DNA of 34,818 bases from a virus: positions 1 through 34,818 of the IMG/VR virus record IMGVR_UViG_3300045988_092923; one strand, given 5' to 3'. The notes under the pieces were generated by a model. That model saw only the letters and a program-made list of their open reading frames with translations, did not search any database and was not told the origin of the DNA. The position numbers and the translations under genes were made by a program. Positions 3,439-24,500 of this stretch are shown piece after piece; positions within the stretch are counted from its first letter, which is position 1; each line of letters opens with the position of its first letter.

Positions 3439-4200
3439 CTATCGCGTCTTTGGCGCGTACTTTCCAAGTCCCAGAACCTTGTCAACCTCTTCGTCTCCAG
3501 TGCTCTGGTAGTAATAATCGGCGTCTATCTTCTTGTCGAATCCGCTCGTTGTTTCACGTGAAACCTTCTTGATGCTTCTATCGCGTCTCGCCCAGTTCCG
3601 AATCGTCGCCAGATGGTTCTTGTAGCTCTTTCCAGTAGAAGCCATGTAGGCGCTGAGCCTTTCAATTCTCTCTTCCCAGTCCGTGGGGAACTCGGCTTTG
3701 AGCTTCTCCAAATCGGTATCGCTGAGAAGGACGTTGGAGTATTCGCCGTACTTGTGGCGCGTCTCCTTCTTCGGTGCCTCCATATCTGGTTTATTAGGTG
3801 TGGTTACATCTGTGTTTATATCTGGTATAGGTTCGCCCTCGTGGGCATTTTCATTTTCCCTGTAGGCAAAATTCATTTGCCCTTTTGTACAAATGGAAAG
3901 TCCCTTTTCGGCAAGTGCATACCACCTCGTGCGGTCATAGGCCGACTTGTTGTAGTTGCCGACCAGAATCATCCCGCCATCTTCCAGCTTCTTCAACGCT
4001 CCGCGAATCTGTTTGTCAGTGAGGTATGGAAACAGCTCAGCAAATGCCCTGACCGAGTTGTATGTCCAGTACCTGCCGTCGTGGAAGTTTGTCTCGTTGG
4101 CGCGGTTGTGCTCAATCCAGTACGCGAGGTTCTGGAAGATGATTGCCGCATTGACCCCGTACTCTTTGGCGATTTGCGGGTCGAACATGTGTAGTGCCAT
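3439..4200 (-). CDS. DnaD-like / phage replisome organizer replication protein
   Basis: The N-terminal winged-helix-like segment is GVNAAIIFQNLAYWIEHNRANETNFHDGRYWTYNSVRAFAELFPYLTDKQIRGALKKLEDGGMI. The C-terminal segment YKNHLATIRNWARRD is typical of DnaD-domain proteins. The gene sits adjacent to the DnaC-like loader. Confidence 0.75.
   Translation of the reverse strand: MALHMFDPQIAKEYGVNAAIIFQNLAYWIEHNRANETNFHDGRYWTYNSVRAFAELFPYLTDKQIRGALKKLEDGGMILVGNYNKSAYDRTRWYALAEKGLSICTKGQMNFAYRENENAHEGEPIPDINTDVTTPNKPDMEAPKKETRHKYGEYSNVLLSDTDLEKLKAEFPTDWEERIERLSAYMASTGKSYKNHLATIRNWARRDRSIKKVSRETTSGFDKKIDADYYYQSTGDEEVDKVLGLGKYAPKTR
3550..3565. promoter_or_regulatory. parS-like site 1 (TGTTTCACGTGAAACc, 15/16 to the consensus parS)
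   Basis: The 14-bp perfect palindrome GTTTCACGTGAAAC lies at 3551-3564. It is inside the DnaD-like CDS, where it encodes VSRET in a linker. Confidence 0.7.
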
Positions 4201-4225
4201 AGCCGAAAACTCCCTCGGTAAGTGA

Positions 4226-4261
4226 AAGCCCCGTCACAGGTAGCGGCTGCGACGGGGCTTT
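4226..4261. other. Stable GC-rich hairpin in the leader of the replication genes (terminator/attenuator-like)
   Basis: AAAGCCCCGTC (4226-4236) pairs with GACGGGGCTTT (4251-4261). There is a T-run on the plus side (tctattttt) but only TTT on the minus side. The loop segment GGTAGCGGC (4239-4247) is complementary to GCCGCTACC at 4307-4315. Confidence 0.5.
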
Positions 4262-4328
4262 CTATTTTTCATGCCGTGAAGGCTTGAAAACTATTTTAGC
4301 TGCAAGGCCGCTACCCTCGCATATCCAT

Positions 4329-4357
4329 ATTATAGCATCACGATTCCTCGATGTTGA
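4329..4357 (-). promoter_or_regulatory. Putative promoter with extended -10: TCAACA (4352-4357), 17 nt, TGcTATAAT (4329-4337)
   Basis: Minus strand reads aTCAACAtcgaggaatcgtgaTGcTATAATatgg. It overlaps the 3' end of the DUF1064 gene, upstream of the hairpin and the DnaD-like gene. Confidence 0.5.
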
Positions 4358-4682
4358 TGTGGTTGAGGTACGCCATCAATTTTTTCTTGAGGCGGTACTC
4401 TTGAGTTTTAATGCCCTTAACGTCCTCGACTACCTGCTTTCCGTCTCGGTAATAAACGAAGTCGGCGATGTACCTCATGCCCCTGTACTTCACCCCGTCG
4501 CACTCGAAGCTCGGCAGAATCTCGAAGGGCACCTGAAGGCGAAGCCCCTGAATCCTTCCAGCATCCTGCATGTCGCGGAGCTTGACGTATCGCTTCGCTT
4601 CCTTGGCACTGTCGAACTCGATTCCGTCAACGACCGTCTTCTTCGCGTGATATTTACTTGCCCGTCGAGCCAAAGCCGTCAT
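4338..4682 (-). CDS. DUF1064-domain protein (YqaN-like, putative nuclease/resolvase fold)
   Basis: KYHAKKTVVDGIEFDSAKEAKRYVKLRDMQDAGRIQGLRLQVPFEI...YIADFVYY matches the DUF1064 pattern. The start MTALARR follows the RBS ggagaggggagATG. Confidence 0.7.
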   Translation of the reverse strand: MTALARRASKYHAKKTVVDGIEFDSAKEAKRYVKLRDMQDAGRIQGLRLQVPFEILPSFECDGVKYRGMRYIADFVYYRDGKQVVEDVKGIKTQEYRLKKKLMAYLNHINIEES

Positions 4683-5064
4683 CTCCCCTCTCCGAGTCCT
4701 CAAGCTCGTCAACGCGCTCGAAACCCACGTAGGCGCATGGCATGATTACCAGCTGCGTTACCTTGTCACCGCGCAGAACGTGATATGGCGCGTCGCTGTG
4801 GTTGTAGAGCTTTACCTTGATTGGCCCCGTGTATCCCTCGTCTATGACTCCCTCGGACGTGATTCCATGTCTCGTGTTGAGTCCAGACTTGCTCTTGAGC
4901 ATCCCAACATAGCCGTGCGGCAGCTGGATATGGACTCCCGTGTCGATGACGCGAGAACCCCTCGCTGGAACCATCGCGTCAATCGGCGAGCGCAGGTCCG
5001 CCCCAGCGTCCGTCTCGTGTGCCCTCACTGGCATGAATGACCCTGCGTCTAGCTTAATCTTCAC
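4654..5064 (-). CDS. dut: dUTP diphosphatase (trimeric dUTPase)
   Basis: Motifs seen are AGADL, GVIDEGYTG, RGDKVTQLV and the C-terminal RGDDGFGSTG. The GTG start (VKIKLDAGS...) follows gggagggaagagc. The track ORF N-terminal extension to 5256 overlaps the upstream gene and is rejected. Confidence 0.9.
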   Translation of the reverse strand: MKIKLDAGSFMPVRAHETDAGADLRSPIDAMVPARGSRVIDTGVHIQLPHGYVGMLKSKSGLNTRHGITSEGVIDEGYTGPIKVKLYNHSDAPYHVLRGDKVTQLVIMPCAYVGFERVDELEDSERGDDGFGSTGK

Positions 5065-5281
5065 GCTCTTCCCTCCCGAAGCTGTATCGTGCGTACCTGA
5101 CCTTCTGGCCGTACCGATTGAATGCGTGCTCTCGCTCCTTGTGTATGTCGTGACCATCGTCCCTGAGCGCGAACACGACAGCCGCGAGCCTTGTGACTCC
5201 CAAGTCCTTGAACGCATCGACTGGCGTGATGCTACCGAACTCTCGTATGTAGTCAAGGACCATCTGTTTCTGACTTGCCAT
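5054..5281 (-). CDS. Winged-helix DNA-binding protein (HTH_39-like)
   Basis: The 75-aa protein reads ...GSITPVDAFKDLGVTRLAAVVFALRDDGHDIHKEREHAFNRYGQKVRYARY, resembling the PF14090-type pattern. The RBS is gagaggggggaagcgATG. Confidence 0.5.
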   Translation of the reverse strand: MASQKQMVLDYIREFGSITPVDAFKDLGVTRLAAVVFALRDDGHDIHKEREHAFNRYGQKVRYARYSFGREERED

Positions 5282-8761: not shown

Positions 8762-10264
8762 ATGGCATACGCAATGTACCTGCGCAAGTCACGCGCAGAC
8801 GAGGAATTGGGATACGAAAACACGCTTGAACGACACGAGGAAATGCTGCGCAACCTCGCGGCTCAGACTGGAATACACGTCGATGAATCGCACATATACC
8901 GCGAGATTGTCTCGGGTGAGAGCATCGAAGCCCGCCCACAGATGCAAAGGCTGCTGAAGGCAGTCGAGATGGGACTTTACACGGGCGTTCTGTGCATCGA
9001 GCTTGAACGTCTCAGCCGTGGGGACGGAGCCGACCAGCAGCGCATACTGAAGGCGTTTCAGTTTTCCGACACGAAGATAATCACGCTCACGAAAACATAT
9101 GACCTTGCTGGCGATGATTCTTTCGACGAGGAATTCTTTGAGTTCGGGCTCTTCATGAGCCGACGCGAGTACAAGATGATAAAAAAGCGCCTGTATCGCG
9201 GAAGGATACAAGCGCAGAAGGAAGGATATTTCATAGGGTCGCGCCCACCATACGGGTACGACAAGAAGCGAATCGGGAAAGGCTACGTGCTGGTGCCGAA
9301 CGAGAACGCGGAAGTCGTTCGATACATCTTCAGGAGGTACGCGCAATACGACACTGCGGCGAACATCCTGCATGACCTGAACAACATGGCAATACCTACA
9401 GTGACTGGGGCGAAATGGACGGCATACGCCATCCGCGAGGTCATTAAGAACCAGACGTACATCGGAAAGATAAACACGAAGACAGTCCGTTGCGAGAAGT
9501 CGATACGGGATGGGAAGGTCGTGCAAAAATGGCTCAACAACTACGAGCCAGTGACAGTCGAAGGAAGGCACGAGCCGATAGTTGATGAAGAGTTGTTCTG
9601 GAAGTGTCAGGAAGTCCGCGACAGCAAGAAGACGAGAACGAGGTCAGACCAGACGCTGAAAAACCCATTCGCGTCGATAATGTTCTGCAGCGTGTGCGGC
9701 AAGACGATGCGCAGAACCCACTACGATTACAAGGGCGAAAGAACGTTTTACTACGGATGCCAAACGTCACGATGCGAGACGAAGAACACCTTCACGCACG
9801 TCGTATATGACATGGTGATTGACGAACTCAAGAAGGAACTGGAACGACAGCAGGTAGTGCTCGCCGATTACGACACATCCCCAGAGCATGACGCGAGAAG
9901 GGACGAACTCGAAATGCTCAAGGCCGAACTCGGAAAGAAGTCGATGATGCTTGAAAGGGCGTGCGAAGCATACGAGACTGGAGTCTACGACCGACAGACA
10001 TACTTGGAGCGAGTCCAGAAGGTAAACGCAGCAAGGGCTGAGCTTCAGGCAAGGGTCGAGGACTTGGAGAAGAGCATCGATGAAAGCGAGGAAAGGCACG
10101 AGAAGGCGGTGCCGATTCTCACAAGGGTTGTCGAGGAAATGCACACCTTGGAGCCGAAGGAGCAGAACGACCTACTCAAGATGATTGTCGATAGAATCGA
10201 ATACGAAAAGACTGAGTCGGGCGCGGCGATAGAACCTACGCTCCGAATCAGTCTCAAAATATAG
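8762..10264 (+). CDS. Large serine recombinase (integrase)
   Basis: The N-terminal resolvase-type catalytic region is YLRKSRAD...RLSRGD. A recombinase domain follows. The zinc ribbon is CSVCGKTMRR...YYGCQTSRC, and a long C-terminal coiled coil completes the 500-aa protein. Confidence 0.9.
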   Translation: MAYAMYLRKSRADEELGYENTLERHEEMLRNLAAQTGIHVDESHIYREIVSGESIEARPQMQRLLKAVEMGLYTGVLCIELERLSRGDGADQQRILKAFQFSDTKIITLTKTYDLAGDDSFDEEFFEFGLFMSRREYKMIKKRLYRGRIQAQKEGYFIGSRPPYGYDKKRIGKGYVLVPNENAEVVRYIFRRYAQYDTAANILHDLNNMAIPTVTGAKWTAYAIREVIKNQTYIGKINTKTVRCEKSIRDGKVVQKWLNNYEPVTVEGRHEPIVDEELFWKCQEVRDSKKTRTRSDQTLKNPFASIMFCSVCGKTMRRTHYDYKGERTFYYGCQTSRCETKNTFTHVVYDMVIDELKKELERQQVVLADYDTSPEHDARRDELEMLKAELGKKSMMLERACEAYETGVYDRQTYLERVQKVNAARAELQARVEDLEKSIDESEERHEKAVPILTRVVEEMHTLEPKEQNDLLKMIVDRIEYEKTESGAAIEPTLRISLKI

Positions 10265-10476: not shown

Positions 10477-12231
10477 TCAAGCCGTCCTCTTCCACATGTA
10501 GACGGCAAGATAAGGCGGCATGTTGTTGTGCGCCTTGTTTCCACCAGTGTACAGCGTGTTTACGTTGCCGCTGTAGCCCCTCTTGTCGTTCGCCTGAACC
10601 GTCATTGACGAGGTTGCCCCGCCCGTGGTGTTGTAGTTGTCGAGCGTGTGGTTGTGCGACGGCATTTCGGACGTCGTGAGCTGGTGGGCAGCTTCTCCGC
10701 CCATGCTCCCAGCCGCGTAGGTGTCATCGGCACCAAGCAGGAACCTGCCCCAGATGCGCTCCCACGTCCCGCCGAACAATGCAGCTGGATTGGCATCGGT
10801 CACGCTCAGATAGATTGAGCCGACTGGGTAAGCCCCCTGAGCCGTGATCCATGCCGAATCTCCGAGCTGCAAAACGTCAGATTGGCTGGGCAGGCAGTTC
10901 ACACCGACGCTCGACTTCTTGGTGTCGATAAAAAACGCAGGGATGCCCTTTCCCAAAGTCAGGTTGTATTCTGTCGTTTCCAGCTTGTCAGAGATGGTCA
11001 CAACGAAGTCGTAGGCCGAATCCCTGTCGCACGTCAGCGTTGATTGGATTGAATCTTCCAGCTCGATTGGCGTTCCATAGCTAGAATCCGAAACCTTCTT
11101 GAACTTCGCGGAGATTGTCACGGCATTCTTGCCGTTCAGATACGAGTAGCGTGCGTGAGCCGTGATGTACGTCGTAGGCTCGAAGTTGTTCAGGCGATGA
11201 AGGTCAATGACGGCAGTCGGTGCGCTGTAATCATCGACGGTTACCTGAACCGATTTGATAGCAGTGAACCCACGGCTGTCGGTTGCCGTGACGGTCAGCT
11301 CCTGCGAATACGAGACGTCCACGGCTCCCAGCGAGACGGCCCCAGAACTCGTAACCGTCTTTGATACTCCACCGAACGCGATGGTGTAGCTCGCGATGGT
11401 CGCGCCCTTCTTTGCGGTCGCGGTCGGAACGTTCACGGTCAGCGTGGAATGGTTCTGGATGATGCGCGACTTGTCCCCAGTCACCGCCACGGTCGCAGCG
11501 TTGGTGTCCTCATACGAGACGGCACCGAGTTCGGGCGCTGCGTCAACGACGTTCATCTTCCTGTCAGCGCGAGAATAGTAGGCCGTGCCGTCGATGGTCG
11601 TTTTCAGCGCGTATGTTACCTTCAGTGTCGGCGAATCGTTGCTCGCGTTTCTCAGGGTCGTGCGCTCAGAATCTGTGAGCTGCATCGTGTACGGACCGCC
11701 CGACCCGCTTATTGCGCCAGCCCTAGTAATGCTCCCGCCAGCGAACTCGATTGACAAATCGCACGCGAAAGACGATGGGTTGCTGTACGTCATCGTCGGG
11801 TTCGTCTCGTCGGTGAAGTCGTTGGCCGTGACGATGGTCGCGTTCCTAGCTATCCTGTCGAGCGAGATGGAGCCTGACGCGACGATGCTCCCGACCTTAG
11901 TGCCGTCGATTGTCGCGTTTAGGTTGAACGTGTCGGTTAGCTGCGCTGTCTTGGTCCCGTCCGCGTCATGCGAAACCCTGTGGACGGTCGTACCGAGAAG
12001 CACTGAGCCGCCCTTCTGGTTGATTGCCCCAGACGTATAGCCCTGTGAAACCACTCCAACAGAACACGTGTTTGCACGCGAAGCGATGTTCAGCGAGTAC
12101 GCCGAGCCGATGACGAGCGTGTGCTTGACCGTCACATCCGAGTAGTTCCCCGCTGCGTTCTGGACCGCGCTCCAATCAGCGCGAAGAGTGTAGCCCCGAT
12201 ACGAGCCTGTGATGCTTCCGCTTGATGCCAT
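10477..12231 (-). CDS. Tail fibre / receptor-binding protein with C-terminal phage tail-collar-like domain
   Basis: It is the last gene of the tail module. The C-terminus PVGSIYLS...LFGGTWERIWGRFLLG...GGEAAHQLTTSEMPSHNH...GGNKAHNNMPPYLAVYMWKRT matches the collar/MdpB-type pattern. The N-terminal SLxxDW..Q region resembles DUF859-type siphovirus proteins. Confidence 0.75.
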   Translation of the reverse strand: MASSGSITGSYRGYTLRADWSAVQNAAGNYSDVTVKHTLVIGSAYSLNIASRANTCSVGVVSQGYTSGAINQKGGSVLLGTTVHRVSHDADGTKTAQLTDTFNLNATIDGTKVGSIVASGSISLDRIARNATIVTANDFTDETNPTMTYSNPSSFACDLSIEFAGGSITRAGAISGSGGPYTMQLTDSERTTLRNASNDSPTLKVTYALKTTIDGTAYYSRADRKMNVVDAAPELGAVSYEDTNAATVAVTGDKSRIIQNHSTLTVNVPTATAKKGATIASYTIAFGGVSKTVTSSGAVSLGAVDVSYSQELTVTATDSRGFTAIKSVQVTVDDYSAPTAVIDLHRLNNFEPTTYITAHARYSYLNGKNAVTISAKFKKVSDSSYGTPIELEDSIQSTLTCDRDSAYDFVVTISDKLETTEYNLTLGKGIPAFFIDTKKSSVGVNCLPSQSDVLQLGDSAWITAQGAYPVGSIYLSVTDANPAALFGGTWERIWGRFLLGADDTYAAGSMGGEAAHQLTTSEMPSHNHTLDNYNTTGGATSSMTVQANDKRGYSGNVNTLYTGGNKAHNNMPPYLAVYMWKRTA

Positions 12232-12247
12232 TCGATTTCCCCCCTTC

Positions 12248-13894
12248 CTATGCCAGCGCTACGAACGCGATTCCCGTGCTCGCGTCTGTCTGAATCGGTA
12301 CCATCTTCAGCAAGCCGCCCACTGCGAGCGAGCTGTTGACGTATCCGTTCGCCATGTAGAACACGCCATCGGTCACCCCGTAGGTCGCGTTTCCCTGTGC
12401 GTCGTACCCTACTAGGCCCTGCGAAGCGTTGATTTCGATGCGCGAGCCGTCGTTGGCCCACATGCGCAGTCCTTCCTTGTCAAGCCTTCCGATAACCGAG
12501 CCACCAGCCGAGCGAACCTCCATCACGCCGTTCCCGTTGTCAGTCCCTCCCAGCTTCAGGGTTCCTCCCTTGATGAGGTCTGCCACGAAGTTGATGACGT
12601 TGATGTTCTGCATGTTCATCGTGCCGTCGATGCCCCACGCGCTCTCGAAAGGACCAGCAACGCCGTTGCGCGAGAACGCAATGCCGTTGTCGTTTATCAG
12701 GATGACGTTGTGAGCTTCCTCCTTCGGCAGCGAGTCCAGCACCATGATTTTCGAGCCGTCGTAGATGACGTAAGATGCGCCCATCGACTGCGTGATTGTC
12801 TGGGTGACCGTATCCGTGACGCCCTGAATCGCGCTGTTGACCGTGCTCTGAGCCGCGCTTTGCGCGGACGATTGGAGCGTTCCAGCAAGTCCGCTGAGCG
12901 TCTTGGTGAAGTTCCCGAACTCAATCTCGGTGTACTTTCCGAGAATGCAGTCGTACGTGAACCCTATCACGCTCGTCAGGATGTGAACCCCAAGGCGCTC
13001 GTCGATAACCTCCACCGTGTCACCGACGTCGGTCACGCGCTCCATGTCTGCCTTGAGCGTGTAGTTCACCTTGGGCACGCAGTTTGCGTTGACGTAATCC
13101 TGCGCCTGCCTTCTCAGGTCATCGACAAGGGCCTTGTGGTAGGCAGCCTCGTCGTTGCCATAAGCGTCCTTGTCGATGTCGGACTGCGAGAACGAGACAG
13201 TCTTTGTGTATGGGATGTCCCACTTTTGCTCGCTCTCGACGTAGATTGACGCGCTCGCGTCTTGGTCGTTGAGAAGGATGCCGTCCGCGCCTACTGGTAG
13301 CAGCTTCGTAACGACGTCGCTCCAATCTTCCTCGCACGTCAGCTCCTTGAGGTTCTTGCGGTACCTCACCGTAACGCCGTTGTCAGTGCCGATTGACTGG
13401 CGAAGCTCGATACGGAAATTGTCACGCACAAGATGCCCGCCCCATCGCTCGATGACCGTCTGTATCGCTTCGTAAAGCGACTTTCGCACGCATCTGAAGG
13501 AATCGACCGTCTGAACGTCGGACGTGGTTACGAACTCGCTCCTTGGCTCGGTTGCTTCGTTCAGGTGATCCAGCGCCGCGTTTGCCGTCATGTCAACGAC
13601 ATACGAGTCGGCGATGAGGTAATTCTTTGAGTCATAGAACACGTGCCACGCCTTGAGGGAAACCTTCGTGCTCTTCTTCGTCACGTCCGAGATGCGGAAC
13701 GCCTGAGCGCCCTGCGGCGTGTCGGCGACGATTATCCTCCCGCTCGTCAGGTAGTCGGCGTACTTGGTGCTCGCTTCCAAATCTAGGTAGTAGTCCCCGT
13801 TGTCCTTCTTTGTCACCTTGGCCTTCGTCGGCAGAAGGACGATATCGCCGTTGCTCGTGAAGTCCTTGTCTGTGCTTTGGAATACCCGAATCAT
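12248..13894 (-). CDS. Tail-associated lysin-like protein (Tal; phage minor structural protein N-terminal region)
   Basis: MIRVFQSTDKDFTSNGDIVLLPTKAKVTKKDNGDYYLDLE... is the typical Tal / prophage tail endopeptidase N-terminus. The RBS is agggagggattgaATG. Confidence 0.75.
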   Translation of the reverse strand: MIRVFQSTDKDFTSNGDIVLLPTKAKVTKKDNGDYYLDLEASTKYADYLTSGRIIVADTPQGAQAFRISDVTKKSTKVSLKAWHVFYDSKNYLIADSYVVDMTANAALDHLNEATEPRSEFVTTSDVQTVDSFRCVRKSLYEAIQTVIERWGGHLVRDNFRIELRQSIGTDNGVTVRYRKNLKELTCEEDWSDVVTKLLPVGADGILLNDQDASASIYVESEQKWDIPYTKTVSFSQSDIDKDAYGNDEAAYHKALVDDLRRQAQDYVNANCVPKVNYTLKADMERVTDVGDTVEVIDERLGVHILTSVIGFTYDCILGKYTEIEFGNFTKTLSGLAGTLQSSAQSAAQSTVNSAIQGVTDTVTQTITQSMGASYVIYDGSKIMVLDSLPKEEAHNVILINDNGIAFSRNGVAGPFESAWGIDGTMNMQNINVINFVADLIKGGTLKLGGTDNGNGVMEVRSAGGSVIGRLDKEGLRMWANDGSRIEINASQGLVGYDAQGNATYGVTDGVFYMANGYVNSSLAVGGLLKMVPIQTDASTGIAFVALA

Positions 13895-13913
13895 TCAATC
13901 CCTCCCTATGTAT

Positions 13914-13943
13914 CAAAAAGGGGTGGCGCATGTGCACCACCCC
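13914..13943 (-). terminator. Strong rho-independent terminator inside the tail gene block
   Basis: Minus strand reads GGGGTGGTGCacatGCGCCACCCC (10-bp stem with one G-U pair) followed by TTTTTG. It lies between the XkdX-like ORF and the Tal gene. Confidence 0.8.
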
Positions 13944-13966
13944 AAAGAATAGCCGCTTTCGGCCTG

Positions 13967-14086
13967 TCACAGCTCGATGCCGTAGATGTCCTTGTACGCG
14001 GCCCTCGTGGCTTCCTTGTACTTCTCGGGCACGCTGTCAAAAGTTCGCAGCCCCTTGTAAATCAGACGCGCGTAGATGTAGCCCAT
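13967..14086 (-). CDS. XkdX / CD1375-like small phage protein (39 aa)
   Basis: Hand translation gives MGYIYARLIYKGLRTFDSVPEKYKEATRAAYKDIYGIEL. The RBS is gagggggcttaaaaATG. It has the usual position at the end of a fibre cassette. Confidence 0.55.
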   Translation of the reverse strand: MGYIYARLIYKGLRTFDSVPEKYKEATRAAYKDIYGIEL

Positions 14087-14088
14087 TT

Positions 14089-14409
14089 TTAAGCCCCCTC
14101 AGTGATGCTCGCAAGCGCTTCCTGTAGCTCGCTTATTTGCTCGGCGTTGATTTCGTCCTGTCCCTTCACGCGGCTGGTGAAATGGGCAACGACGTTCTCG
14201 CCGTCCGTCTCGGCCTTCACGGAGACGGGCACAAGATGCTGCACCGCAGCGCCGTCGAAAGTCACGCCCTTCAGGTTGTCCTCGGTGAACTTCGCGCGGA
14301 TTGCGTCAAGCTCCGCGAAGGTCTTGACTACCGCCACGCAGTCGAGCACCGTGCTCGAATCAGTGAAGTCGTAGGTCGTGCCGTTCGTAAATTTCAGTGT
14401 CTTTGCCAT
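14089..14409 (-). CDS. Hypothetical protein (106 aa), fibre-cassette member
   Basis: The RBS is aaaggaggaaaaATG. No motif was recognised. Confidence 0.7.
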   Translation of the reverse strand: MAKTLKFTNGTTYDFTDSSTVLDCVAVVKTFAELDAIRAKFTEDNLKGVTFDGAAVQHLVPVSVKAETDGENVVAHFTSRVKGQDEINAEQISELQEALASITEGA

Positions 14410-14430
14410 TTTTCCTCCTTTTGATGTTCC

Positions 14431-15084
14431 CTACCCCAGATGCGCAAGGCTCCCAGCAACTCCCGCCTTGACGTATAGGACGGTTATCGTAACGGTGAGT
14501 TCGGGCCAGTTCGACCCGCCGACGTTGTTTGCACGCATTGTGACACGCGCGTGCTGATTGCTTGTAATATCAATCCATGTAGGGCTGAACGTCCCCGCAT
14601 GGTTAGATGTGAAGCCAGAGACACAAACTGGCGTCCAGCCACTCAAAGCCGCGTCAACATCGACGTCAACGGTGGCCCCAGGGGCTATATTCGTGAAAGA
14701 CTGGTCGAACTTCTTGGTCATGATGACGCCGCTAGTAATGCCGCTAATCTCGCCCGTTACCGTCGTTGCCGTGGAGTTGGAATCGCTGATTGTGGAACCC
14801 TTTGCGATTGATGCCGTCACCTTGCGCAAAACGCCACCGACAACGACGTAATCCCCAGCAGAGTACGCCTGAGATGCCGTGGTCGAGGACTCTACCGCAG
14901 CGCTCGGGACGATTTGGCGCTGAATCGCCACGTTGTCTGCGTTCCTCACCTCGTACGTGAACGTTGCCCCATCAGTGTACGTGATTGTGTACGTGTCAAC
15001 GACGCCAGTCGTTGCGGTCTTCTCGATTTTCGAGATTCCTCGACCGTCTTTTCCCTTGACGTTGCCGATTAAAGTCTTTGCCAT
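14431..15084 (-). CDS. Tail fibre-like protein (217 aa)
   Basis: The N-terminal module KGKDGRGISKIEKTATTGVVDTYTITYTDG is shared with the upstream 114-aa protein. The RBS is gaggggtgatggctaATG. Confidence 0.7.
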   Translation of the reverse strand: MAKTLIGNVKGKDGRGISKIEKTATTGVVDTYTITYTDGATFTYEVRNADNVAIQRQIVPSAAVESSTTASQAYSAGDYVVVGGVLRKVTASIAKGSTISDSNSTATTVTGEISGITSGVIMTKKFDQSFTNIAPGATVDVDVDAALSGWTPVCVSGFTSNHAGTFSPTWIDITSNQHARVTMRANNVGGSNWPELTVTITVLYVKAGVAGSLAHLG

Positions 15085-15090
15085 TAGCCA

Positions 15091-15435
15091 TCACCCCTCT
15101 GTAACGTAGTACAAGTTGCCGCTTGCCGAGTCGTACTCGAAGTCTGGCACCTCGTCCGAATCCGAATGGTAGACCCAGAGATTTCCGTCAGCATCGACGC
15201 CCATATTGAAAAGTCCAGACACTGGGACCGAGACTACGTTCCCCGTGTCTCCCTTCTCGCCCTTCTCGCCGTCGCGGCCATTCTGCACATAGAACTTCTG
15301 TTCCACCCCGTTCGTGAGCCTTACCGTGTACGTGTCGATTAGGCCCTCAGTCGCGGTCTTTTCGATTGACTCGATGCTGGCACCAGTCTCGCCCTTGAGC
15401 ATCAGAACCTTGACCGTTTCGTCAATGTTTGCCAT
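15091..15435 (-). CDS. Short collagen-like-repeat fibre protein (114 aa)
   Basis: The start MANIDETVKVL... follows gggggtgaggacATG. The protein carries KGETGASIESIEKTATEGLIDTYTVRLTNG and G-X-Y triplets (GRDGEKGEKGDTG). Confidence 0.7.
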   Translation of the reverse strand: MANIDETVKVLMLKGETGASIESIEKTATEGLIDTYTVRLTNGVEQKFYVQNGRDGEKGEKGDTGNVVSVPVSGLFNMGVDADGNLWVYHSDSDEVPDFEYDSASGNLYYVTEG

Positions 15436-15446
15436 GTCCTCACCCC

Positions 15447-15806
15447 CTAGAAAGTCACGTCCTGCATGATTTCGAGTACCCCGCGCATGACGGTGAACAC
15501 GTCCCCGTTGCACCCGATTTCGAGGTCGTAGAAGTACTTCCCAGGCTTCGCGTCGGCGGTGTCGCTCGGGGCCACCCTCACGACGTAGGAGCCTCGCCCG
15601 GCCTTCGACACTCCGTCCGAAAGAGACTTCTTGAAAAGGAATCGCTTGTCGCTCCGGTTAGATTTGCAGGTGAAATGGGCACGCTCCAGATCCTGGCCGA
15701 AAGGCGTGCCAGTCTCGTCGTAGACCTGAATCCCGAAGGAAAGCGTGTCACCGCGAACCATGCGGATGTACTTGTCCTCCATCGTGAAATTCGTCCGCAC
15801 CATCAT
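15447..15806 (-). CDS. Hypothetical virion-associated protein (119 aa)
   Basis: The start MMVRTNFTMEDKY... has an ATGA overlap with the Dit stop. The sequence looks beta-rich. Confidence 0.65.
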   Translation of the reverse strand: MMVRTNFTMEDKYIRMVRGDTLSFGIQVYDETGTPFGQDLERAHFTCKSNRSDKRFLFKKSLSDGVSKAGRGSYVVRVAPSDTADAKPGKYFYDLEIGCNGDVFTVMRGVLEIMQDVTF

Positions 15807-16873
15807 AACCACCTCGAAAAATCTTCGACCTTGATTCCCGTGACGTCTCCGCGCCACGACATGACGTTCTCCCCTGCCTTCAGAGCCAAGTCGGCGTAAT
15901 CTCCAGTGACACGCCGATTCATCAAGGCATCACCATGGTATGCGTTCATCTCGTCAGCGTCTATCGTGATGTAATCATCATCGATTGAGAACGACAGCAC
16001 CGTGACGGCATTGATTGCAAGCTCGACGTTGCCGCTGCCGTAGACGGTTACGGTCGGCCTTGAGATGATGTTCCCTCGATTGGTGAGCGTGATTGAGCGG
16101 AAATTGTTGCTCGACATCGTGGCCGTCAACGTGAAGCCAAGCGTGGTGCCAGCCTGTACGTACAGCCATAGAGCGTCGTACTCTGTGTCGGCGTCTGCCG
16201 TGATGCTCGACGTGCCGTTGCTCTTCAGCTCGGTGTACGTTCCGCCGAAAGAGTCTCCATCAGGCTGTGCGCGTGACACGAGCTTGAGCGCACAGCCTGC
16301 GGCGTCCCCGCTCGTCGCAGCCGTGAGCGTGTAGCTGCCAGAAAGCGTGATGCGGTCTATAGGAACCATAATCTCGGCGGTGTTCGTCGCCTTCCCAGCA
16401 ACGCGCACGCTTCCGCCACTTGAGACTGCCGTGATTCCGAACCTGCTCGCCGTTGAGTCCTTGACGTTTATGAGTTGGTTAACGACCTCAAAAGTCCTGT
16501 CAACGGCGTCGTACTTGAATGGCTGTACGTGCAACTTCACCTTCGCCGTGCGGAACCGCACCAAGCGCTCGAAGTCGATTTGGTCGAGAATCTGATAGCG
16601 GTAGTACTTGTCTGGCTCGTTGCTGAAAACGACCTCTCCCTCTGAGTCGAGGAATGCTATCGCGTCATCGACGTCGAAGTCACCATGAAGGCCGATGCTG
16701 ACCTCCTTGTCGTAGGCAGCGTATCCCAGCTTGGTGATTATGTCTCCGTCGCGCCCGTCGATGTCCTCGGACGAATAGCGCATCTTCGGCTTCGTGATAG
16801 GCGGAAGCGACTGGATCATCAATCCCTTGACGTCCGTGCTCTTCTCGCCGTTCAACTCTATGTATCCAATCAT
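15803..16873 (-). CDS. Distal tail protein (Dit)
   Basis: It lies immediately downstream of the tape measure gene. The N-terminus MIGYIELNGEKSTDVKGLMIQSLPPITKPKMRYSSEDIDGRDGD is typical of siphovirus tail-family (Dit) proteins. At 356 aa, its size suggests an inserted domain. Confidence 0.75.
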   Translation of the reverse strand: MIGYIELNGEKSTDVKGLMIQSLPPITKPKMRYSSEDIDGRDGDIITKLGYAAYDKEVSIGLHGDFDVDDAIAFLDSEGEVVFSNEPDKYYRYQILDQIDFERLVRFRTAKVKLHVQPFKYDAVDRTFEVVNQLINVKDSTASRFGITAVSSGGSVRVAGKATNTAEIMVPIDRITLSGSYTLTAATSGDAAGCALKLVSRAQPDGDSFGGTYTELKSNGTSSITADADTEYDALWLYVQAGTTLGFTLTATMSSNNFRSITLTNRGNIISRPTVTVYGSGNVELAINAVTVLSFSIDDDYITIDADEMNAYHGDALMNRRVTGDYADLALKAGENVMSWRGDVTGIKVEDFSRWL

Positions 16874-16884
16874 GCAAACACCTC

Positions 16885-19785
16885 CTATGCGTAAATCGCG
16901 TTCGTGACCGTACGCTCCACGAACCTTCCTGCCACCTCGTCATCGAGGACGATGTGGACCCTTCCAAGCGCTTCGACAACGGCGTCAACGATTCCGTCTC
17001 CGCCATAGGCCCCAGCTCCTGCCGATTGATACGCGACCGATTCCATCGTGCCACCAATCGAGAACACCGAAGCATCGGGCATGGCGTCCTGCATCTGCCG
17101 CGTGACGTTGCCCATCTCGCTTTCGAAGCCGACACCGATGCCCTGCGCAATGTACTTGCCGACTTGGTCACGGAACACGCGCGAAGGCGAGTGGATGCCG
17201 AGCGCGTTCTTCATTCCGTCGAGGATTCCACTTGCAAATGACTTTACCTTATCAGCAAGCCACCCAGCAGCTCCGCTGATTCCGTTCCAGATTCCGTGAA
17301 CGATGTCACCGCCGATGCTTGCAACCCTGCTCGGAAGGCTCTTGATTCCATTGACAACAGCGTTGAACATCCTGTGTGCGCCGTCAGCTCCCTTTGCCGC
17401 CATCTGTCCAGCCCACGACGCGAGCCTTGAGATGACCTGCGAAAGGAAGCTCCCAATCCTGCTCGGAAGCTGTTGGATGAAACGCACGACGTTTGCATTG
17501 AACTGCGTTCCAGCTCTGGTCGCGTTCGACGCCATGTTAGACACCCAAGAGCCTACCCTCGAAATGACGTTCGAGAGGAATGAGCCAATCCTGCTGGGAA
17601 GCTGCTGGATAAAGTTCACGACATTGCTAACGAATTGTGAGCCTGCCTGCCGCGCGTTCTGCACGAAGCTCGAAACCCACGAGATGACGGTCCCGATGAC
17701 CGTACCAAGCAGGTAGCCAATGTTGTACGGAAGGTTCTGCACGAAGCTCACGACGTTAGAAACGAACTGCGAACCAGCGCTCGCCGCCTGCTGCGCGAGG
17801 TTCGACGCCCACCCAGTGACCGTGGATATGACGTTGTTCAGCCAGTCGGCGAACATCTGCGGCAGCTGGCTAATGGTCGTGCCGAGGTTCGTGAAGAAGT
17901 CACCGATTGCCTGAATCGCATTGCCGATGAAGTCCTTGATGCCGTTCCAGATGTTCGTCACCGCGTCGCGGAAGTCCTTGTTCGTGTTCCAAAGAACAAC
18001 GATAGCCGCGACAACGCCAGCGATAAGTCCGATTACAAGACCAATCGGAGAGGAAAGTTGCACGGCGTTCAGAATCCTCTGTGCCACGGTAAGCCCCTCG
18101 GTCGCTGCCTTCCACTCATTGAAGGCCGTGACCATCGCCTCTACCTTTTGCGCGACCATTATGCCGCCAAGTGCCGTCGCTATGCCGGCGATTAGCGGGC
18201 CGATGGTTGGAAGGTTGTCCTTGAACCACTGAATCGCCTTCTTGATTGGCGGGATGACCTTGGAAACGGCGTCTGAGATTCCGTTGATGAAGTTTGTCAC
18301 GTTCTCGGAGCCGATGGCATCGTAAATCTGCATCAAGCCGTCGGTGACGGCGGCCTGCATGTTGCCCATCGCACCCTCGAACGTGTCCGTCGAGGTCGCC
18401 GCCTGCTTCGCCGCGTCCGTAAAGCCCAAGTCCATAATCGCCTTGTTGAACTCGTCGGCGGTAATCTGGCCCTTCTCCATCGCGTCGCGGAAGTTCCCAG
18501 TGTACGCGCCGTTCTTCTTGAGCGCCTCCTGAAGCTTTCCGCTCGCGCCCGGAATCGCGTCCGACAGCTGATTCCAGTTCTCGGTCGTGAGCTTGCCTGC
18601 TCCAGCAGTCTGCGTGAGCACCATCGCGACCGAACTGAACGTGTCCTGATTTCCGCCAGCGACGGCGTTGAGGTTTCCAGCCGCTTCGGTAAGCTGCTCG
18701 AAGTTCGGGACGCCGTTGGCAGCGAGCTGCGCCGTCGTGTTCGAGACCGTCTCGAGGTCGTAAACTGTCTTGTCGGCGTAGTCCTTCATCTGAGTCTTTG
18801 CAGTCTCGATTTGGGAATTATCATAGCCAGCGAAGCTCATTGTCGATTCGAACTTCTTCAATGAGTCCGAACTTTGAATTGCTTCGCCCGCAAGGTCTTG
18901 TATGCCGCTGATTGCGGTTTGAATGACGTTGCCAGCCAGATTTGCAAGCGCGCCCTTGAGCACGGTGAAGCCACCGTTGCCCGCACTACTTGCGCTGTTA
19001 CCAAGCTTGTCAAGACCACCAGCGAGGTTGTCTGCTCCAGTCTTGGCCGCGTTCATCCTTGACTCGTTCTGCTGGACCTCGCTCGAAAGACTCTTAATCT
19101 CGGTACCGAGCTTCTTCGCTTCCGAGCTGTTCTTTCCGTACGTCAGCACGGCGTTTGCGTACTCACTCTTAAGGCTCGAAAGCTTGCTCTTCTGCTGCTC
19201 GATTGTGGAGCTAAGGCGCTCCATCTCGCTTGCCGCCTTGCCCTGAGCGCCGCTCATATCCCCAAGCTGCCTGTCAAGTTCGCCTATCTCGGACGTGGTC
19301 TTGTTGATGTCGGTCTTTGCGTTGTTAATCTGCGTGCGCATTCTGGACATTGCGTTTGCGTTCGAGTCCTGCGCCGCCGTGCTCTTGTCGACCTCCCTCG
19401 CAAGCTGCTCGACGTGCTGCTTCTGCTCCTTGTACTCGGGCGAAGTCTCTCCCAGCTCCTGCCCTATCTTCTCGAGCTTGGCCTTCTCTTCCTCGTAAGA
19501 CTGCACCAGCTTCTCGTGCTTTTGCGCGTTGGTCGCGTACTCGTCGCTCATCTTCGAGTACTGGGCCTGAAGAGTCGAAAGCCGCTGCTTCTGCTGTTCC
19601 AGCTTCTCGTTGAGCACGTTCTGCTTGGCAGTGAGCGCCTGCGTGCTCGTGTCGCTCTTGTCATACTGCGACGCGACGAGCTTCATCTCGGACGATACCT
19701 CCTTCAGCCGCTGCGTGATGTTACGCAGCGCTGCGCGGTACTCGCTCTCTCCTGTCAGCTTTACGGCTCCGCCAAAACTCGTCAT
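16885..19785 (-). CDS. Tape measure protein
   Basis: The 966-aa protein has a coiled-coil N-terminal third and hydrophobic segments (LIAGIATALGGIMV, IGLVIGLIAGVVAAIVVL). It also has internal tandem repeats and follows the G/G-T chaperone genes. Confidence 0.92.
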   Translation of the reverse strand: MTSFGGAVKLTGESEYRAALRNITQRLKEVSSEMKLVASQYDKSDTSTQALTAKQNVLNEKLEQQKQRLSTLQAQYSKMSDEYATNAQKHEKLVQSYEEEKAKLEKIGQELGETSPEYKEQKQHVEQLAREVDKSTAAQDSNANAMSRMRTQINNAKTDINKTTSEIGELDRQLGDMSGAQGKAASEMERLSSTIEQQKSKLSSLKSEYANAVLTYGKNSSEAKKLGTEIKSLSSEVQQNESRMNAAKTGADNLAGGLDKLGNSASSAGNGGFTVLKGALANLAGNVIQTAISGIQDLAGEAIQSSDSLKKFESTMSFAGYDNSQIETAKTQMKDYADKTVYDLETVSNTTAQLAANGVPNFEQLTEAAGNLNAVAGGNQDTFSSVAMVLTQTAGAGKLTTENWNQLSDAIPGASGKLQEALKKNGAYTGNFRDAMEKGQITADEFNKAIMDLGFTDAAKQAATSTDTFEGAMGNMQAAVTDGLMQIYDAIGSENVTNFINGISDAVSKVIPPIKKAIQWFKDNLPTIGPLIAGIATALGGIMVAQKVEAMVTAFNEWKAATEGLTVAQRILNAVQLSSPIGLVIGLIAGVVAAIVVLWNTNKDFRDAVTNIWNGIKDFIGNAIQAIGDFFTNLGTTISQLPQMFADWLNNVISTVTGWASNLAQQAASAGSQFVSNVVSFVQNLPYNIGYLLGTVIGTVISWVSSFVQNARQAGSQFVSNVVNFIQQLPSRIGSFLSNVISRVGSWVSNMASNATRAGTQFNANVVRFIQQLPSRIGSFLSQVISRLASWAGQMAAKGADGAHRMFNAVVNGIKSLPSRVASIGGDIVHGIWNGISGAAGWLADKVKSFASGILDGMKNALGIHSPSRVFRDQVGKYIAQGIGVGFESEMGNVTRQMQDAMPDASVFSIGGTMESVAYQSAGAGAYGGDGIVDAVVEALGRVHIVLDDEVAGRFVERTVTNAIYA
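17245..17769 (-). repeat. About four tandem 44-aa repeats within the tape measure protein
   Basis: F(V/N)(S/A)NVV.F(V/I)QQLPSRIGSFLS.VISR..SW........AG.Q recurs over residues about 673-847. Confidence 0.75.
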
Positions 19786-19800
19786 TCAAAATCACCTCCA

Positions 19801-19816
19801 TGTTTCACGTGAAACA
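19801..19816. promoter_or_regulatory. parS-like site 2 (TGTTTCACGTGAAACA, perfect 16/16)
   Basis: The site is intergenic. It lies exactly between the G-T stop (TAG at 19817-19819) and the tape-measure RBS (ggaggtga). Confidence 0.75.
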
Positions 19817-20412
19817 CTAGAACCATTCCTCATCACTCTCGGCCTTCGCATCGATGCTTGCATACGTCGAACCGCTTGCCCTCAGCCTTGTCTCTGTGTC
19901 GAACGTGTCCTTGTATGCCTGATACAGCCCACGAAAGCGCCTGAGCGTGAGTCTCCCGACCTCCTTGTCGGACGAAAGCCCCAGCCTCGTCCGGCCCATG
20001 AAGTAGTACCACGAGAAGTTGATGGTCGGGTCGTAGTCAAAGATTACGTCTTCGTCGTGGACTATGCGTTTTTTGAGTCATCCTCGGTGGAGTCGATGAC
20101 GCTCTTCTGCACCTTGTCGGTCACGGATTCCAGACCGACCTCGGTCAGGATGCGTGCGACCTTTCTATGCGTGAGCGGCTTCTCGTCTGTGCCGTCCTCG
20201 TCGTTGGAAATGTCGATTCCCTCGTTAATCATCTCCATGACACCAAAGACGAGCGCCTTGATGTTTGGCTCCCCGCCATCGTCAGGCTCGGTGAGCTTGC
20301 CCCATGCCTCGATGCTGCCATACTCGTCCTGAATCGCCTCCATGACGTTGAGGTCGAACACGAGCCTGTAGGTCTTTCCGCGATACTCGATTTCCTGCAT
20401 CGTACTCTTCAT
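19817..20412 (-). CDS. Tail assembly chaperone G-T fusion via -1 programmed frameshift
   Basis: The -1 frame is open from the slippery site to the stop at 19817 (...KKRIVHDEDVIFDYDPTINFSWYYFMGRTRLGL...EEWF). It lacks its own RBS or start near the slip site. Confidence 0.7.
20062..20412 (-). CDS. Tail assembly chaperone (gpG-like)
   Basis: The start MKSTMQEIEYRGKTYRLVFDLNVMEAIQDEYG... follows gaaaggtggaattttATG. It lies between the major tail and tape measure genes and has an acidic C-terminus. Confidence 0.8.
   Translation of the reverse strand: MKSTMQEIEYRGKTYRLVFDLNVMEAIQDEYGSIEAWGKLTEPDDGGEPNIKALVFGVMEMINEGIDISNDEDGTDEKPLTHRKVARILTEVGLESVTDKVQKSVIDSTEDDSKNA
20068..20074 (-). other. Slippery heptamer A_AAA_AAC for -1 frameshifting
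   Basis: The zero frame reads GAC TCA AAA AAC GCA TAG. The heptamer sits 2 codons before the gpG stop. Confidence 0.7.
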
Positions 20413-20496
20413 AAAATTCCACCTTTCATATCGAATGGGCCATGGGCCGACTTGACCCATGACCCATTATCCCGCATCTTTAGTCAAACGGCAGCG

Positions 20497-21069
20497 CTAG
20501 GAAGAAGACACCTTGAGCTTGTCCTTGACCCACGTCACCGCTGCGTCCTTGGTGTCGAACGTCTGCGCCGCGCTCCAATCGCCGTTCGCGAGCGAGGATG
20601 CAGTCCCCTCGATTTCGGGCGTCTTGAACTCGACGCTCTCGCCCTTGGTCTGGTCATCCTGAGACGGCTCGGAGAACTTCACCTTGTACAGGAACTCGCC
20701 CTTGTACGCCATCTTGCCATTGACCATCTTTGTGATGACTCGGCCGAGTCCGATGTAGGGCGCCGTGTCGTTGGCGTTGCGTACCATCTCTCCCTTGCCG
20801 CTCGTTCCGTCCTTGACGGTGTGGCCGAGGATGGGCGCGAAGATTGTATCGTCATCGTCCGCGACCCCGAGAGTCACCTTGGCGGAGTTGAAGGTCTTGT
20901 CAGACTCCGCGAGCGCGTCCTCGGCGTACAGGGTCGCGTCATTGTTGGTGACGTCAACCTTCGTAGAGACGGCCTTGCCGAAGCTCTTCGCGCCGTCATA
21001 GGTCGGAGTGCCGTCCTCCGCTTCGGTGAGCTTGCCCCACCAGAGATTTGTAAGTCCAATCTTTGCCAT
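20497..21069 (-). CDS. Major tail protein (phi13/TP901-1-like)
   Basis: The N-terminus MAKIGLTNLWWGKLTEAEDGTPTYDGAKSFGKAVSTKVDVTNNDATLYAEDALAE is typical of this family. Its position before the chaperones also fits. Confidence 0.8.
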   Translation of the reverse strand: MAKIGLTNLWWGKLTEAEDGTPTYDGAKSFGKAVSTKVDVTNNDATLYAEDALAESDKTFNSAKVTLGVADDDDTIFAPILGHTVKDGTSGKGEMVRNANDTAPYIGLGRVITKMVNGKMAYKGEFLYKVKFSEPSQDDQTKGESVEFKTPEIEGTASSLANGDWSAAQTFDTKDAAVTWVKDKLKVSSS

Positions 21070-22493: not shown

Positions 22494-22503
22494 CTAATCC
22501 CCC

Positions 22504-22641
22504 CTACTCTTGGGGATTCGCGTCCCCAGACTTCTTGGTGCTCCTTCCGCGCTTTGGCTTGACCTCTTCGATGTATCCAGCCTTGAGCAGGTCGGCAACG
22601 ATTTCGGCGTCCTTAATCTCCCGCGTCTCGCCCTCGCACAT
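22504..22641 (-). CDS. Small basic-tailed protein (45 aa; 58 aa if the GTG at 22680 is used)
   Basis: Hand translation gives MCEGETREIKDAEIVADLLKAGYIEEVKPKRGRSTKKSGDANPQE. It fills the capsid-connector gap. The overlapping track ORF 22494..22742 is an Arg-rich shadow frame. Confidence 0.45.
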   Translation of the reverse strand: MCEGETREIKDAEIVADLLKAGYIEEVKPKRGRSTKKSGDANPQE

Positions 22642-22672
22642 CGAGATTGCTCCGCTGAAGGACTTGAGCGCC

Positions 22673-23854
22673 TTATGCACCTGCCATCACCAGCTTGGCG
22701 AGCTTCTGGGCGTCCTGCACCTTGGAGTCGAACTCGAACCACGAGATTACGCCCGTGGCGTGCTCGTCGGCGTACTTCTCTCGAAGAACCTGAGTCGTAA
22801 TGTTCTCAGAGAACTTCGTCGCAAGGCCCGTCATATCGCCGTAGTAGATGGTCGTTGCTCCAGCCTTGATGTCGGGCATGTTGTCGGACACGTATACGGG
22901 CTTGCCGAGAAGGACGGTACCGAAAGGCGAAGAGATGTCATCGTTGAGCAGGTAGTGCCCGTCGGTGCCCTTCAGAAGTCGGAGCGCCGTGCGGGTCGCG
23001 GGGGACATAATCCAGAAGGCGTTGTTCTGGTAGACGTCCTTGATGGAATCCTTCAGCTTGACAACATCGTCGGAGGTGATTGCGGTACCTGCGGCGGTGG
23101 TCACGGAGTTGGTGAGCTTGGAAAGGCCCTCGACCTTGTTGCTGGTGCCGATAAGCAGCTCGTGCTCGATGAAGCGCGCGATGTCCTCGCCCATCTGGTT
23201 GACGACGAAGGAAACGATGTCGAACTGAGAGTTGTTAATCAGGCTGTTGCTAATCTTGGAAAGGGCGCCAGCGAGGAAGCCGTCAAGCTCGATGTTGGTG
23301 AACTTGCCGTTGCTGGAGGTCAGCGGGGTGAACTCCTCGGCGTAAGCAACGTTGATGCCACCGCTGGTGGTGTCGTAGTACGGAATCTGGAGCTTGCCCT
23401 TGACGTTGTACTTCTGCGACTTCTCCAGAATCGGCGAAACGTCATAGACCTTCTTGATAATCTGCTGCGCGATGGTGGTCGGGATGACCGCGCCGTTGTC
23501 GGTCTTCTTCAGCTCGCCCGCACGCTCGTGCATCACGCGGCCACGAATGAAGTTCTCGAATGCTCGGGTGTCCTGCTGCTCCTGAGTCGGCTTCGGCTCA
23601 CCGCCAGCGGGCATAGGCTCCTTCTTAGGCTGCTTGTCCTTCGAATCGTCCAGCTCGTCGCCAATCTTGAGCGCGTCCTTGATGCGCTTCACATCGTCGC
23701 GAATCTCGGCAAGCTCGGCGGCTTCGTCGGGCGTCAGCTCGCGCTTGTTTACCTCGGCGTCGGCCAGAATCTTCTCGGCCTTGTCAATCTTGTCGTTCTT
23801 CAGCTCCACGAGGTTCTTGTAGCTCATGGCGCGGGTGTGGAAAATCTTCGGCAT
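22673..23854 (-). CDS. Major capsid protein, HK97 family
   Basis: The N-terminal coiled delta-like region is ELKNDKIDKAEKILADAE...IRDDVKRIKDAL, followed by a capsid-like body. The gene follows the prohead protease and has RBS ggagggctaacATG. Confidence 0.88.
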   Translation of the reverse strand: MPKIFHTRAMSYKNLVELKNDKIDKAEKILADAEVNKRELTPDEAAELAEIRDDVKRIKDALKIGDELDDSKDKQPKKEPMPAGGEPKPTQEQQDTRAFENFIRGRVMHERAGELKKTDNGAVIPTTIAQQIIKKVYDVSPILEKSQKYNVKGKLQIPYYDTTSGGINVAYAEEFTPLTSSNGKFTNIELDGFLAGALSKISNSLINNSQFDIVSFVVNQMGEDIARFIEHELLIGTSNKVEGLSKLTNSVTTAAGTAITSDDVVKLKDSIKDVYQNNAFWIMSPATRTALRLLKGTDGHYLLNDDISSPFGTVLLGKPVYVSDNMPDIKAGATTIYYGDMTGLATKFSENITTQVLREKYADEHATGVISWFEFDSKVQDAQKLAKLVMAGA

Positions 23855-23855
23855 G

Positions 23856-24500
23856 TTAGCCCTCCTTCATTTCGGCAATCATTGCCTTGTACTTGCTGTA
23901 ATCAATCTCTTGCTTGGTTTCACGTGAAACATCGTCGGACTTGTCCTCTCGAGTCTCTGGCGTTTCACGTGAAACATCGTGCTCGGCAACGTTGGCGTCG
24001 AACGCGTCAGATACGAAAATCCTGTCCTCGGAATCGTCGCTCCTAGCCATGATGAGCGTGCCGTCGTAGGCTGGCACCTTGGAACGGTCGAGAATGGACA
24101 CCTCTTCGAGGTCGAGGTCGTTCACCTCGCGCGTCAGCATGCCGTTCTCGACGCCGTTCTTGACGTCTCGGTCATAGAACCCGAAAGACCAGCCAACCAA
24201 ATCGCCGCGCTTTGCCTTCTCCATGACGTCCTTGTCAGTGATGGTGCACTTCGCGCGAAGTCCGATGTTGTCCTCGGTGAGTTCGAGGTTGCCCTGCTTG
24301 GTGCTTCCCAGGTCGCGCTGCCAGTCGTGGTTGAGCAGCACGTGAACATCGTCGTTGCGCTTCAGGGCACGCGCGAACGCCCCCTTCTTGATTCGCTCGA
24401 TGAACTTCCCCATACGCGACATGAGCGGCTTACTGTTGCGCTCGACGGCATTGACGTAGCCCTCGATTTCGACGCTATCCTCACGAATGTTAATCTGCAT
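23856..24500 (-). CDS. Prohead protease, HK97 family (S78)
   Basis: MQINIREDSVEIEGYVNAVERNSKPL...LLNHD...LGS..GNLEL.ED..GL is the typical pattern. The start follows agggggtgaaatcaATG. The acidic C-terminal tail contains two parS-like sites. Confidence 0.85.
   Translation of the reverse strand: MQINIREDSVEIEGYVNAVERNSKPLMSRMGKFIERIKKGAFARALKRNDDVHVLLNHDWQRDLGSTKQGNLELTEDNIGLRAKCTITDKDVMEKAKRGDLVGWSFGFYDRDVKNGVENGMLTREVNDLDLEEVSILDRSKVPAYDGTLIMARSDDSEDRIFVSDAFDANVAEHDVSRETPETREDKSDDVSRETKQEIDYSKYKAMIAEMKEG
23916..23931. promoter_or_regulatory. parS-like site 3 (gGTTTCACGTGAAACA, 15/16)
   Basis: The site lies inside the protease CDS tail, where it encodes VSRET. The 19 nt GTTTCACGTGAAACATCGT are identical to site 4. 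Confidence 0.7.
23961..23976. promoter_or_regulatory. parS-like site 4 (cGTTTCACGTGAAACA, 15/16)
   Basis: The site lies inside the protease CDS tail, 45 bp centre-to-centre from site 3, and encodes VSRET. Confidence 0.7.

Follow-up and report, generated by a model that had tools for sequence, protein, structure and literature searches.

Phage phi29 carries five parS sites that are bound by Spo0J, the ParB protein of its host, and that have been implicated in the segregation of the phage genome into the prespore, that is, in spore entrapment; host Spo0J-binding parS is also attributed to its relative Nf (both as summarised in PMC2731898, which cites Meijer et al. 2005 for phi29). SGI1, an integrative mobilisable element, carries a mimic of its helper plasmid's parS (PMC10954446). 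P1 (parABS), N15 (sopAB/sopC) and mycobacteriophages with ParABS also have centromere-like repeats on the phage genome, in N15 dispersed among genes, and these are served by the phage's own ParA and DNA-binding ParB acting on a private centromere, with no integration. The present analysis concerns four copies of the chromosomal-type parS palindrome in the complete genome, of about 35 kb, of a siphovirus from the human gut (IMG/VR record IMGVR_UViG_3300045988_092923); the whole stretch analysed, positions 1 to 34,818 of that record, is called the window below.

An exact scan located the 14-mer GTTTCACGTGAAAC exactly four times in the window, at 3551-3564, 19802-19815, 23917-23930 and 23962-23975. 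These are the copies, with the same 16-mers, that had been listed in an earlier model-made account of this DNA (the sequence-only reading). No additional parS match with up to two mismatches was found in the window beyond the four exact ones. Dinucleotide-preserving shuffles gave a mean of 0.15 matches at up to two mismatches and 0 of 100 shuffles reached four, which agrees with the earlier claim that the copies did not arise by chance. The consensus TGTTNCACGTGAAACA has served to find chromosomal parS in gut Firmicutes and in other phyla, with 1-10 sites per genome (PMC10197239). All four phage sites have the exact 14-bp core; over 16 bp, one copy matches the consensus perfectly and the other three each deviate from it at one outer position, the natural one-mismatch variants in the window being TGTCTCACGTGAAACA and TGTTTCACGTGAGACA; the proposed identity with the chromosomal parS consensus was thereby confirmed. 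Four sites in 35 kb, compared with 1-10 per whole bacterial genome, amount to an origin-like density.

The four sites, to which no strand is assigned, occupy three loci: two protein linkers and one intergenic spacer. Site 1 (TGTTTCACGTGAAACc, 3550..3565) is situated in the linker at the C-terminal end of the replisome organiser, a DnaD-like replication initiation gene on the minus strand (3439..4200; matches to the 'replication initiation protein' family PHROG 11233, E = 6e-45, and to a DnaD-like helicase loader, E = 1e-22). The DnaC-like loader gene, which is the IstB/DnaC-like gene that comes next after the organiser (2584-3423), starts 128 nt downstream of the site. Site 2 (TGTTTCACGTGAAACA, 19801..19816), the perfect 16-mer, is intergenic and is flanked by the stop codon of the tail-chaperone open reading frame (ORF; stop at 19817-19819) and by the ribosome-binding site (GGAGG) of the tape-measure gene (start 19785). 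Sites 3 (gGTTTCACGTGAAACA, 23916..23931) and 4 (cGTTTCACGTGAAACA, 23961..23976) lie at a distance of 45 bp from each other in the acidic linker at the C-terminal end of the prohead serine protease (Peptidase_S78; 23856..24530, minus strand; Pfam PF04586, E = 1.5e-33), both after the catalytic domain (residues 11-164).

The three coding sites (1, 3 and 4) are all in the frame that reads V-S-R-E-T. The sequence-only reading had noted this peptide in linkers and was right in that respect, but the sharing of one frame is by itself weak evidence, because TGA occurs in one of the palindrome's three frames, so that only two are possible. Frame sharing was discounted as a sign of selection for this reason.

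Other observations show that the sites are kept by selection on the DNA and not on the peptide, as had been supposed. The core codons are all minority codons in this phage (GTT 21%, TCA 10%, CGT 11% and GAA 26%), and the chance of VSRE being spelled with them is P = 5.6e-4 per site and 1.7e-10 for three sites. For comparison, 26 related IMG/VR contigs were rebuilt from overlapping loci. In the relatives that keep VSRET (14 distinct ones per gene) the Ser and Arg codons are always TCA and CGT, and the alignment check that the earlier account had called for gave a codon diversity of 0.15 in the site columns vs 0.28 for the organiser gene, and of 0.06 vs 0.25 for the protease gene. In both proteins VSRET forms an invariant island, while the linker residues around it vary freely. 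Site 1 is retained where the organiser is only 45-88% identical, and other organiser alleles carry SRRAQE in its place; site 3 is present in the clade with a protease at least 86% identical and not in the clade with the linker EPPETRD...QQEPQQE. Site 2, when 30 relatives were aligned to the window, appeared as a clean presence/absence indel of 16-17 bp in an otherwise alignable spacer. It is the combination of minority codons, low codon diversity, invariant islands and a precise intergenic indel that places the selection at the level of DNA.

The rebuilt relatives carry from 0 to 4 sites, in varied combinations of the three loci, and the parS sites are for this reason regarded as discrete, selected, accessory DNA elements that are polymorphic among closely related genomes. 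Site 1, in the organiser gene, is the most widely conserved of them. In independent gut contigs from ENA, a site was present in 11 of 35 integrase-centred loci. Outside this group the exact 16-mer TGTTTCACGTGAAACA was found in at least 120 IMG/VR contigs, many of which contain 2-6 copies, and among the matches listed approximately 25 contigs are phi29-like, encoding a phi29-like polymerase, connector, capsid or ATPase. The carriage of host-type parS thus recurs widely among phages. Among the matches listed, the G+C content ranges from 27% to 72%, several contigs have 4-6 sites (L152, L166, L193, L207 and L252), and the sites are found between genes or inside those for polymerase, lysin, scaffold and other proteins, where they are translated as VSRET or FHVK. 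Some contigs with five sites packed into less than 1 kb (L167, L207) may be fragments of plasmids or origins, not phages.

The view expressed in the sequence-only reading, that host-type parS in a phage was undescribed, had to be given up in the light of phi29 and Nf, as summarised in PMC2731898, and of the parS mimicry by SGI1 (PMC10954446). When the phi29 genome was scanned, TGTTTCACGTGGAACA turned up four times, within genes 10, 15 and 17 and directly behind gene 16; the literature counts five sites. The likeness to phi29 consists in several host-type parS dispersed within and between genes and in the lack of partition genes of the phage's own. The two phages differ in type, since phi29 is a protein-primed, virulent podovirus whose host is a known spore-former, whereas the window encodes a siphovirus of the cos type that has a serine integrase and a switch of the CI/Cro type; in addition, phi29 uses Spo0A boxes at promoters and origins, and conserved boxes of this kind are not supported here. 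SGI1 is similar in having orphan centromere copies of the ParABS system of another replicon, whose ParB it uses for stability while extrachromosomal, but this parS is that of the IncC helper plasmid and not a chromosomal one, SGI1 encodes the auxiliary protein Sci, and it is not a phage. The window differs from the plasmid-prophages: no ParA and no ParB with a helix-turn-helix (HTH) motif were found in it, the site is of host type and an integrase is present. What is new is therefore the carrier, a temperate-type cos siphovirus of the human gut with a serine integrase; the principle is known from phi29.

With moderate confidence, the four copies are considered to be genuine chromosomal-type parS, accommodated in tolerant places and read by the host ParB (Spo0J), so that phage DNA is carried at division or into the forespore. 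The host protein is the most plausible reader because no ParA and no HTH-bearing ParB were found among the phage ORFs scanned and because the site conforms to the host consensus; judged on these features, binding of host ParB to the sites is most likely. Selection at the DNA level has placed parS in two hypervariable protein linkers and one intergenic spacer; according to this proposal, host ParB would load there as a clamp dependent on cytidine triphosphate (CTP) and spread over much of the 35-kb genome. Unintegrated phage DNA would then resemble origin-proximal chromosome to the ParABS/SMC machinery of the host, and it would be carried along at cell division, or into the forespore if the host sporulates. 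A benefit in segregation or entrapment is suggested by analogy.

Several points weigh against reading by host ParB. A complete relative of 33.8 kb has 0 sites and many close relatives have 0-1, so that any benefit must be conditional. The serine integrase provides another route of inheritance, and a parS reader encoded by the phage may be hidden among its many unannotated small ORFs. The ParB of the host, its parS specificity and its sporulation capacity are assumptions of the proposal. The Spo0A box TGTCGAA occurs 15 times in the window vs 7.5 +/- 2.5 expected, three of the copies being clustered at 30677-30721, but no relative has this cluster. A companion signal of Spo0A boxes, known from phi29, is accordingly not supported, and the other TGTCGAA copies may reflect codons for the dipeptide FD.

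The ParB-like gene of the window, at 29715..30461 on the minus strand, encodes an orphan ParB_N-domain protein (Pfam PF02195, E = 2e-7, residues 8-86 only); its position and the lack of ParA among the window ORFs scanned were as the sequence-only reading had reported. Resemblance to ParB, Noc and KorB, both in sequence and in predicted fold (PDB matches), is confined to residues ~4-98. Residues 101-248 contain 40 acidic and 11 basic residues and have a net charge of -29. No HTH or other DNA-binding domain was detected in the protein by Pfam or by PDB sequence and fold matches, and the arginine-rich box that is canonically GERR reads GHTR, which bears out the earlier remark on both elements. 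Structure prediction gave a confident, ParB-like N-domain; the C-terminal half, with a predicted local distance difference test (pLDDT) of 33-81, shows no HTH but is uninformative, and the long Foldseek alignments of the model have a root-mean-square deviation of 13-18 Å. The ORF at 30361-30870, which adjoins this gene, looks spurious.

Two TET-associated-type glycosyltransferase genes adjoin the ParB_N gene (28042..29731, minus strand; Pfam PF20691, E = 3e-38 and 1.5e-21; PHROG 842). The locus from cos to the small terminase gene is a hypervariable modification cassette, wholly absent in some relatives. The N-domain of the window protein recurs there in fused form: in contig 100479 (L054) it is 93% identical over residues 1-120 and joined to an N6_N4 methyltransferase, in contig 033283 (L090) it is 92% identical and accompanied by the same DPPYN motif, and in contig 29621_31 (L011/L143) it is 88% identical and part of a 407-aa fusion whose partner was not assigned. 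Contig 074531 (L057) has Methyltransf_23 joined to a ParB_N domain that is more distant (45% identical). The ParB_N gene is thus a member of a variable DNA-modification cassette. Orphan proteins of the ParB-CTPase fold in phages are a published class (PMC12704722), and phage ParB-like proteins without a DNA-binding domain have been found to activate DNA T-dioxygenases on double-stranded DNA, for which a clamp-like action was proposed (PMC13229309). The protein encoded in the window resembles these orphan and 5mYOX-associated ParB proteins (PMC12704722, PMC13229309) in having a ParB_N fold without a DNA-binding domain beside modification enzymes. It differs from the 5mYOX-associated ones in that no TET/JBP dioxygenase (PF12851) was matched among the ORFs scanned, and the likeness concerns the gene, not the parS sites. 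No C5-methyltransferase was found in the genome either.

The sequence-only reading had offered the phage protein as a second candidate for binding the sites, and in this form ParB_N, alone or with the glycosyltransferases, would read the palindromes, for example as loading sites for a DNA-modification clamp. The gene is indeed present in the window, and the clamp-like action proposed for the dioxygenase activators that lack a DNA-binding domain (PMC13229309) offers a parallel. The distribution of gene and sites does not follow this expectation, however. Contigs 083407, 29580_22 and 060151 have no ParB gene between the HNH endonuclease and small terminase genes and yet carry three parS sites; contigs 077922 and 072552 have the ParB_N gene and 0 sites; no parS site was found within 10 kb of the gene in distant ParB_N phages; and the Lactobacillus delbrueckii phage phiLdb, with a ParB and glycosyltransferase cassette at its left end, has 0 sites. 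A tie between the sites and the phage gene was therefore rejected, and the sites are independent of it. Since the two do not co-vary, the ParB_N protein is probably not the reader, and the likeness to ParB limited to the first ~95 residues, the acidic remainder without an HTH, the GHTR box and the use of the N-domain as a fusion partner of methyltransferases in sister phages all argue in the same direction; this alternative is considered very unlikely. Slightly less credit still is given to the sites being binding sites of the replisome organiser, or replication origins. In phage SPP1 the initiator binds sites inside its own gene and at a second, distant locus, and the most widely conserved site of the present group does sit in the organiser gene. 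This site is nevertheless kept in organisers of 45-88% identity whose N-terminal, DNA-binding parts have diverged, some of them matching only over residues 117-253; organiser alleles without the site and site-free genomes exist; and a pan-bacterial host consensus that recurs in unrelated phages would not be expected of a private origin. Iterons flanking site 1 were looked for and none were found, so its identification as an origin on that ground was abandoned.

Two further explanations retain the host ParB as the reader. The sites could act as a sponge or means of take-over, the hundreds of parS copies in a replicating phage pool titrating ParB away from the origin of the host and disturbing segregation, SMC loading or the ParA/Soj-DnaA control, to the benefit of lytic growth and with no partition of the phage itself. 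The density of four sites per 35 kb vs 1-10 per genome, the constant recovery of the phage as free contigs of 29-39 kb, whose names give coverage values of 4 to 131, in bulk gut metagenomes, and the accessory nature and varying number of the sites fit such a role. Against it, no precedent was found in the literature searched, and no sequence feature separates titration from hitch-hiking; it is judged unlikely, though it is the most credible of the rival explanations. A function in the prophage is less probable again: extra ParB/SMC loading sites would be placed on the chromosome, e.g. at an origin-proximal attB, or genes would be insulated or silenced by ParB spreading. The serine integrase and the fact that each site precedes a gene start, that of the major capsid, tape-measure or DnaC-like loader gene, by no more than ~130 nt are in keeping with this idea, but no integrated copy was found in any collection and all contigs measure 29-39 kb.

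The search for integrated copies and host-embedded contigs was made by means of the integrase in metagenomes. The enzyme is a large serine recombinase (8762-10264; Resolvase, Recombinase and Zn_ribbon_recom domains), and contigs with an integrase at least 55% identical to it were all free. Relatives with informative records came from human-gut metagenomes of many samples. The clues to the host are this source, the Firmicute-type gene content and one metagenome-assembled genome bin named 'uncultured Clostridia bacterium' in a GTDB scan, which also gave an unrelated Methanobrevibacter match. No nucleotide match was found in INPHARED, and the cluster names of the matches were 'Caudoviricetes sp.' only. 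Protein matches diverge: the head genes (capsid, terminase) match Lactobacillus delbrueckii phages, the lysin Bifidobacterium phage PMBT6, and the tail genes phages of gut Lachnospiraceae. A related lysin catalytic domain is encoded by a different prophage (67% G+C) at 10979-20717 of locus L267, integrated beside typA and the rpsF-ssb-rpsR-rplI-dnaB-purA cluster of a host with 64% G+C; no parS was found in the 20-kb L267 locus. The lysin homologue on a 202-kb contig belongs to a different host, of 65% G+C.

Nearly all genes of the window are on the minus strand. In the direction of transcription they begin with holin, lysin, HNH endonuclease, a non-coding repeat region of ~300 nt, ParB_N and the two glycosyltransferases, followed by the small and large terminase, portal, S78 prohead protease, HK97-type capsid, head-tail and tail genes, tape measure and distal tail genes. 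Next come the serine integrase and a CI-like gene on the opposite strand, then a Cro-like gene, Gp157, a Rad52-like annealase, single-stranded DNA-binding protein (SSB), dUTPase and DUF1064, and the order ends with the DnaD-like replisome organiser and the DnaC/IstB-like loader. The same layout was found in phiLdb (genus Cequinquevirus), whose terminase and capsid are 74% and 67% identical, respectively. An inverted repeat at 4224-4262, between the DUF1064 and organiser genes, has 16-nt arms that are 94% complementary and a 7-nt loop; it may serve as a terminator or as a hairpin linked to an origin. The non-coding region of ~300 nt between the HNH and ParB_N genes (30462-30767) contains six repeats of the TTTTCTACAAT type, a C8 run and three TGTCGAA. 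In relatives, the contig ends lie 161-177 nt upstream of the start of ParB_N and 76-97 nt past the HNH stop, and the gap is therefore taken as the cos or terminase-recognition region, with the physical end near 30620-30690. The sequence of the repeats in this region varies among relatives.

For the annotation of phage genomes these data advise caution, as the gene labelled 'ParB' in this phage is a member of a DNA-modification cassette and not a partition gene. Prediction of origins in metagenomic contigs on the basis of parS can likewise be misled by phage DNA. The natural variants with 0-4 sites in otherwise near-identical genomes constitute ready-made controls. If host ParB does load on these sites, the borrowing of a centromere in the manner of phi29 would extend to another virus family and another lifestyle, in the human gut, and unintegrated, segregating phage genomes might be commoner there than models of lysogeny and lysis assume. 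Tentatively, and as a rather long guess, parS carriage may be a widespread, uncatalogued strategy of phages of Gram-positive gut bacteria, among them temperate siphoviruses and many uncultured phi29-like podoviruses, in which host ParB (and ParA/SMC) would serve either the upkeep and segregation of an unintegrated genome in a carrier state, independently of sporulation, or the subversion of host segregation; sites gained or lost in coding linkers would adjust their number.

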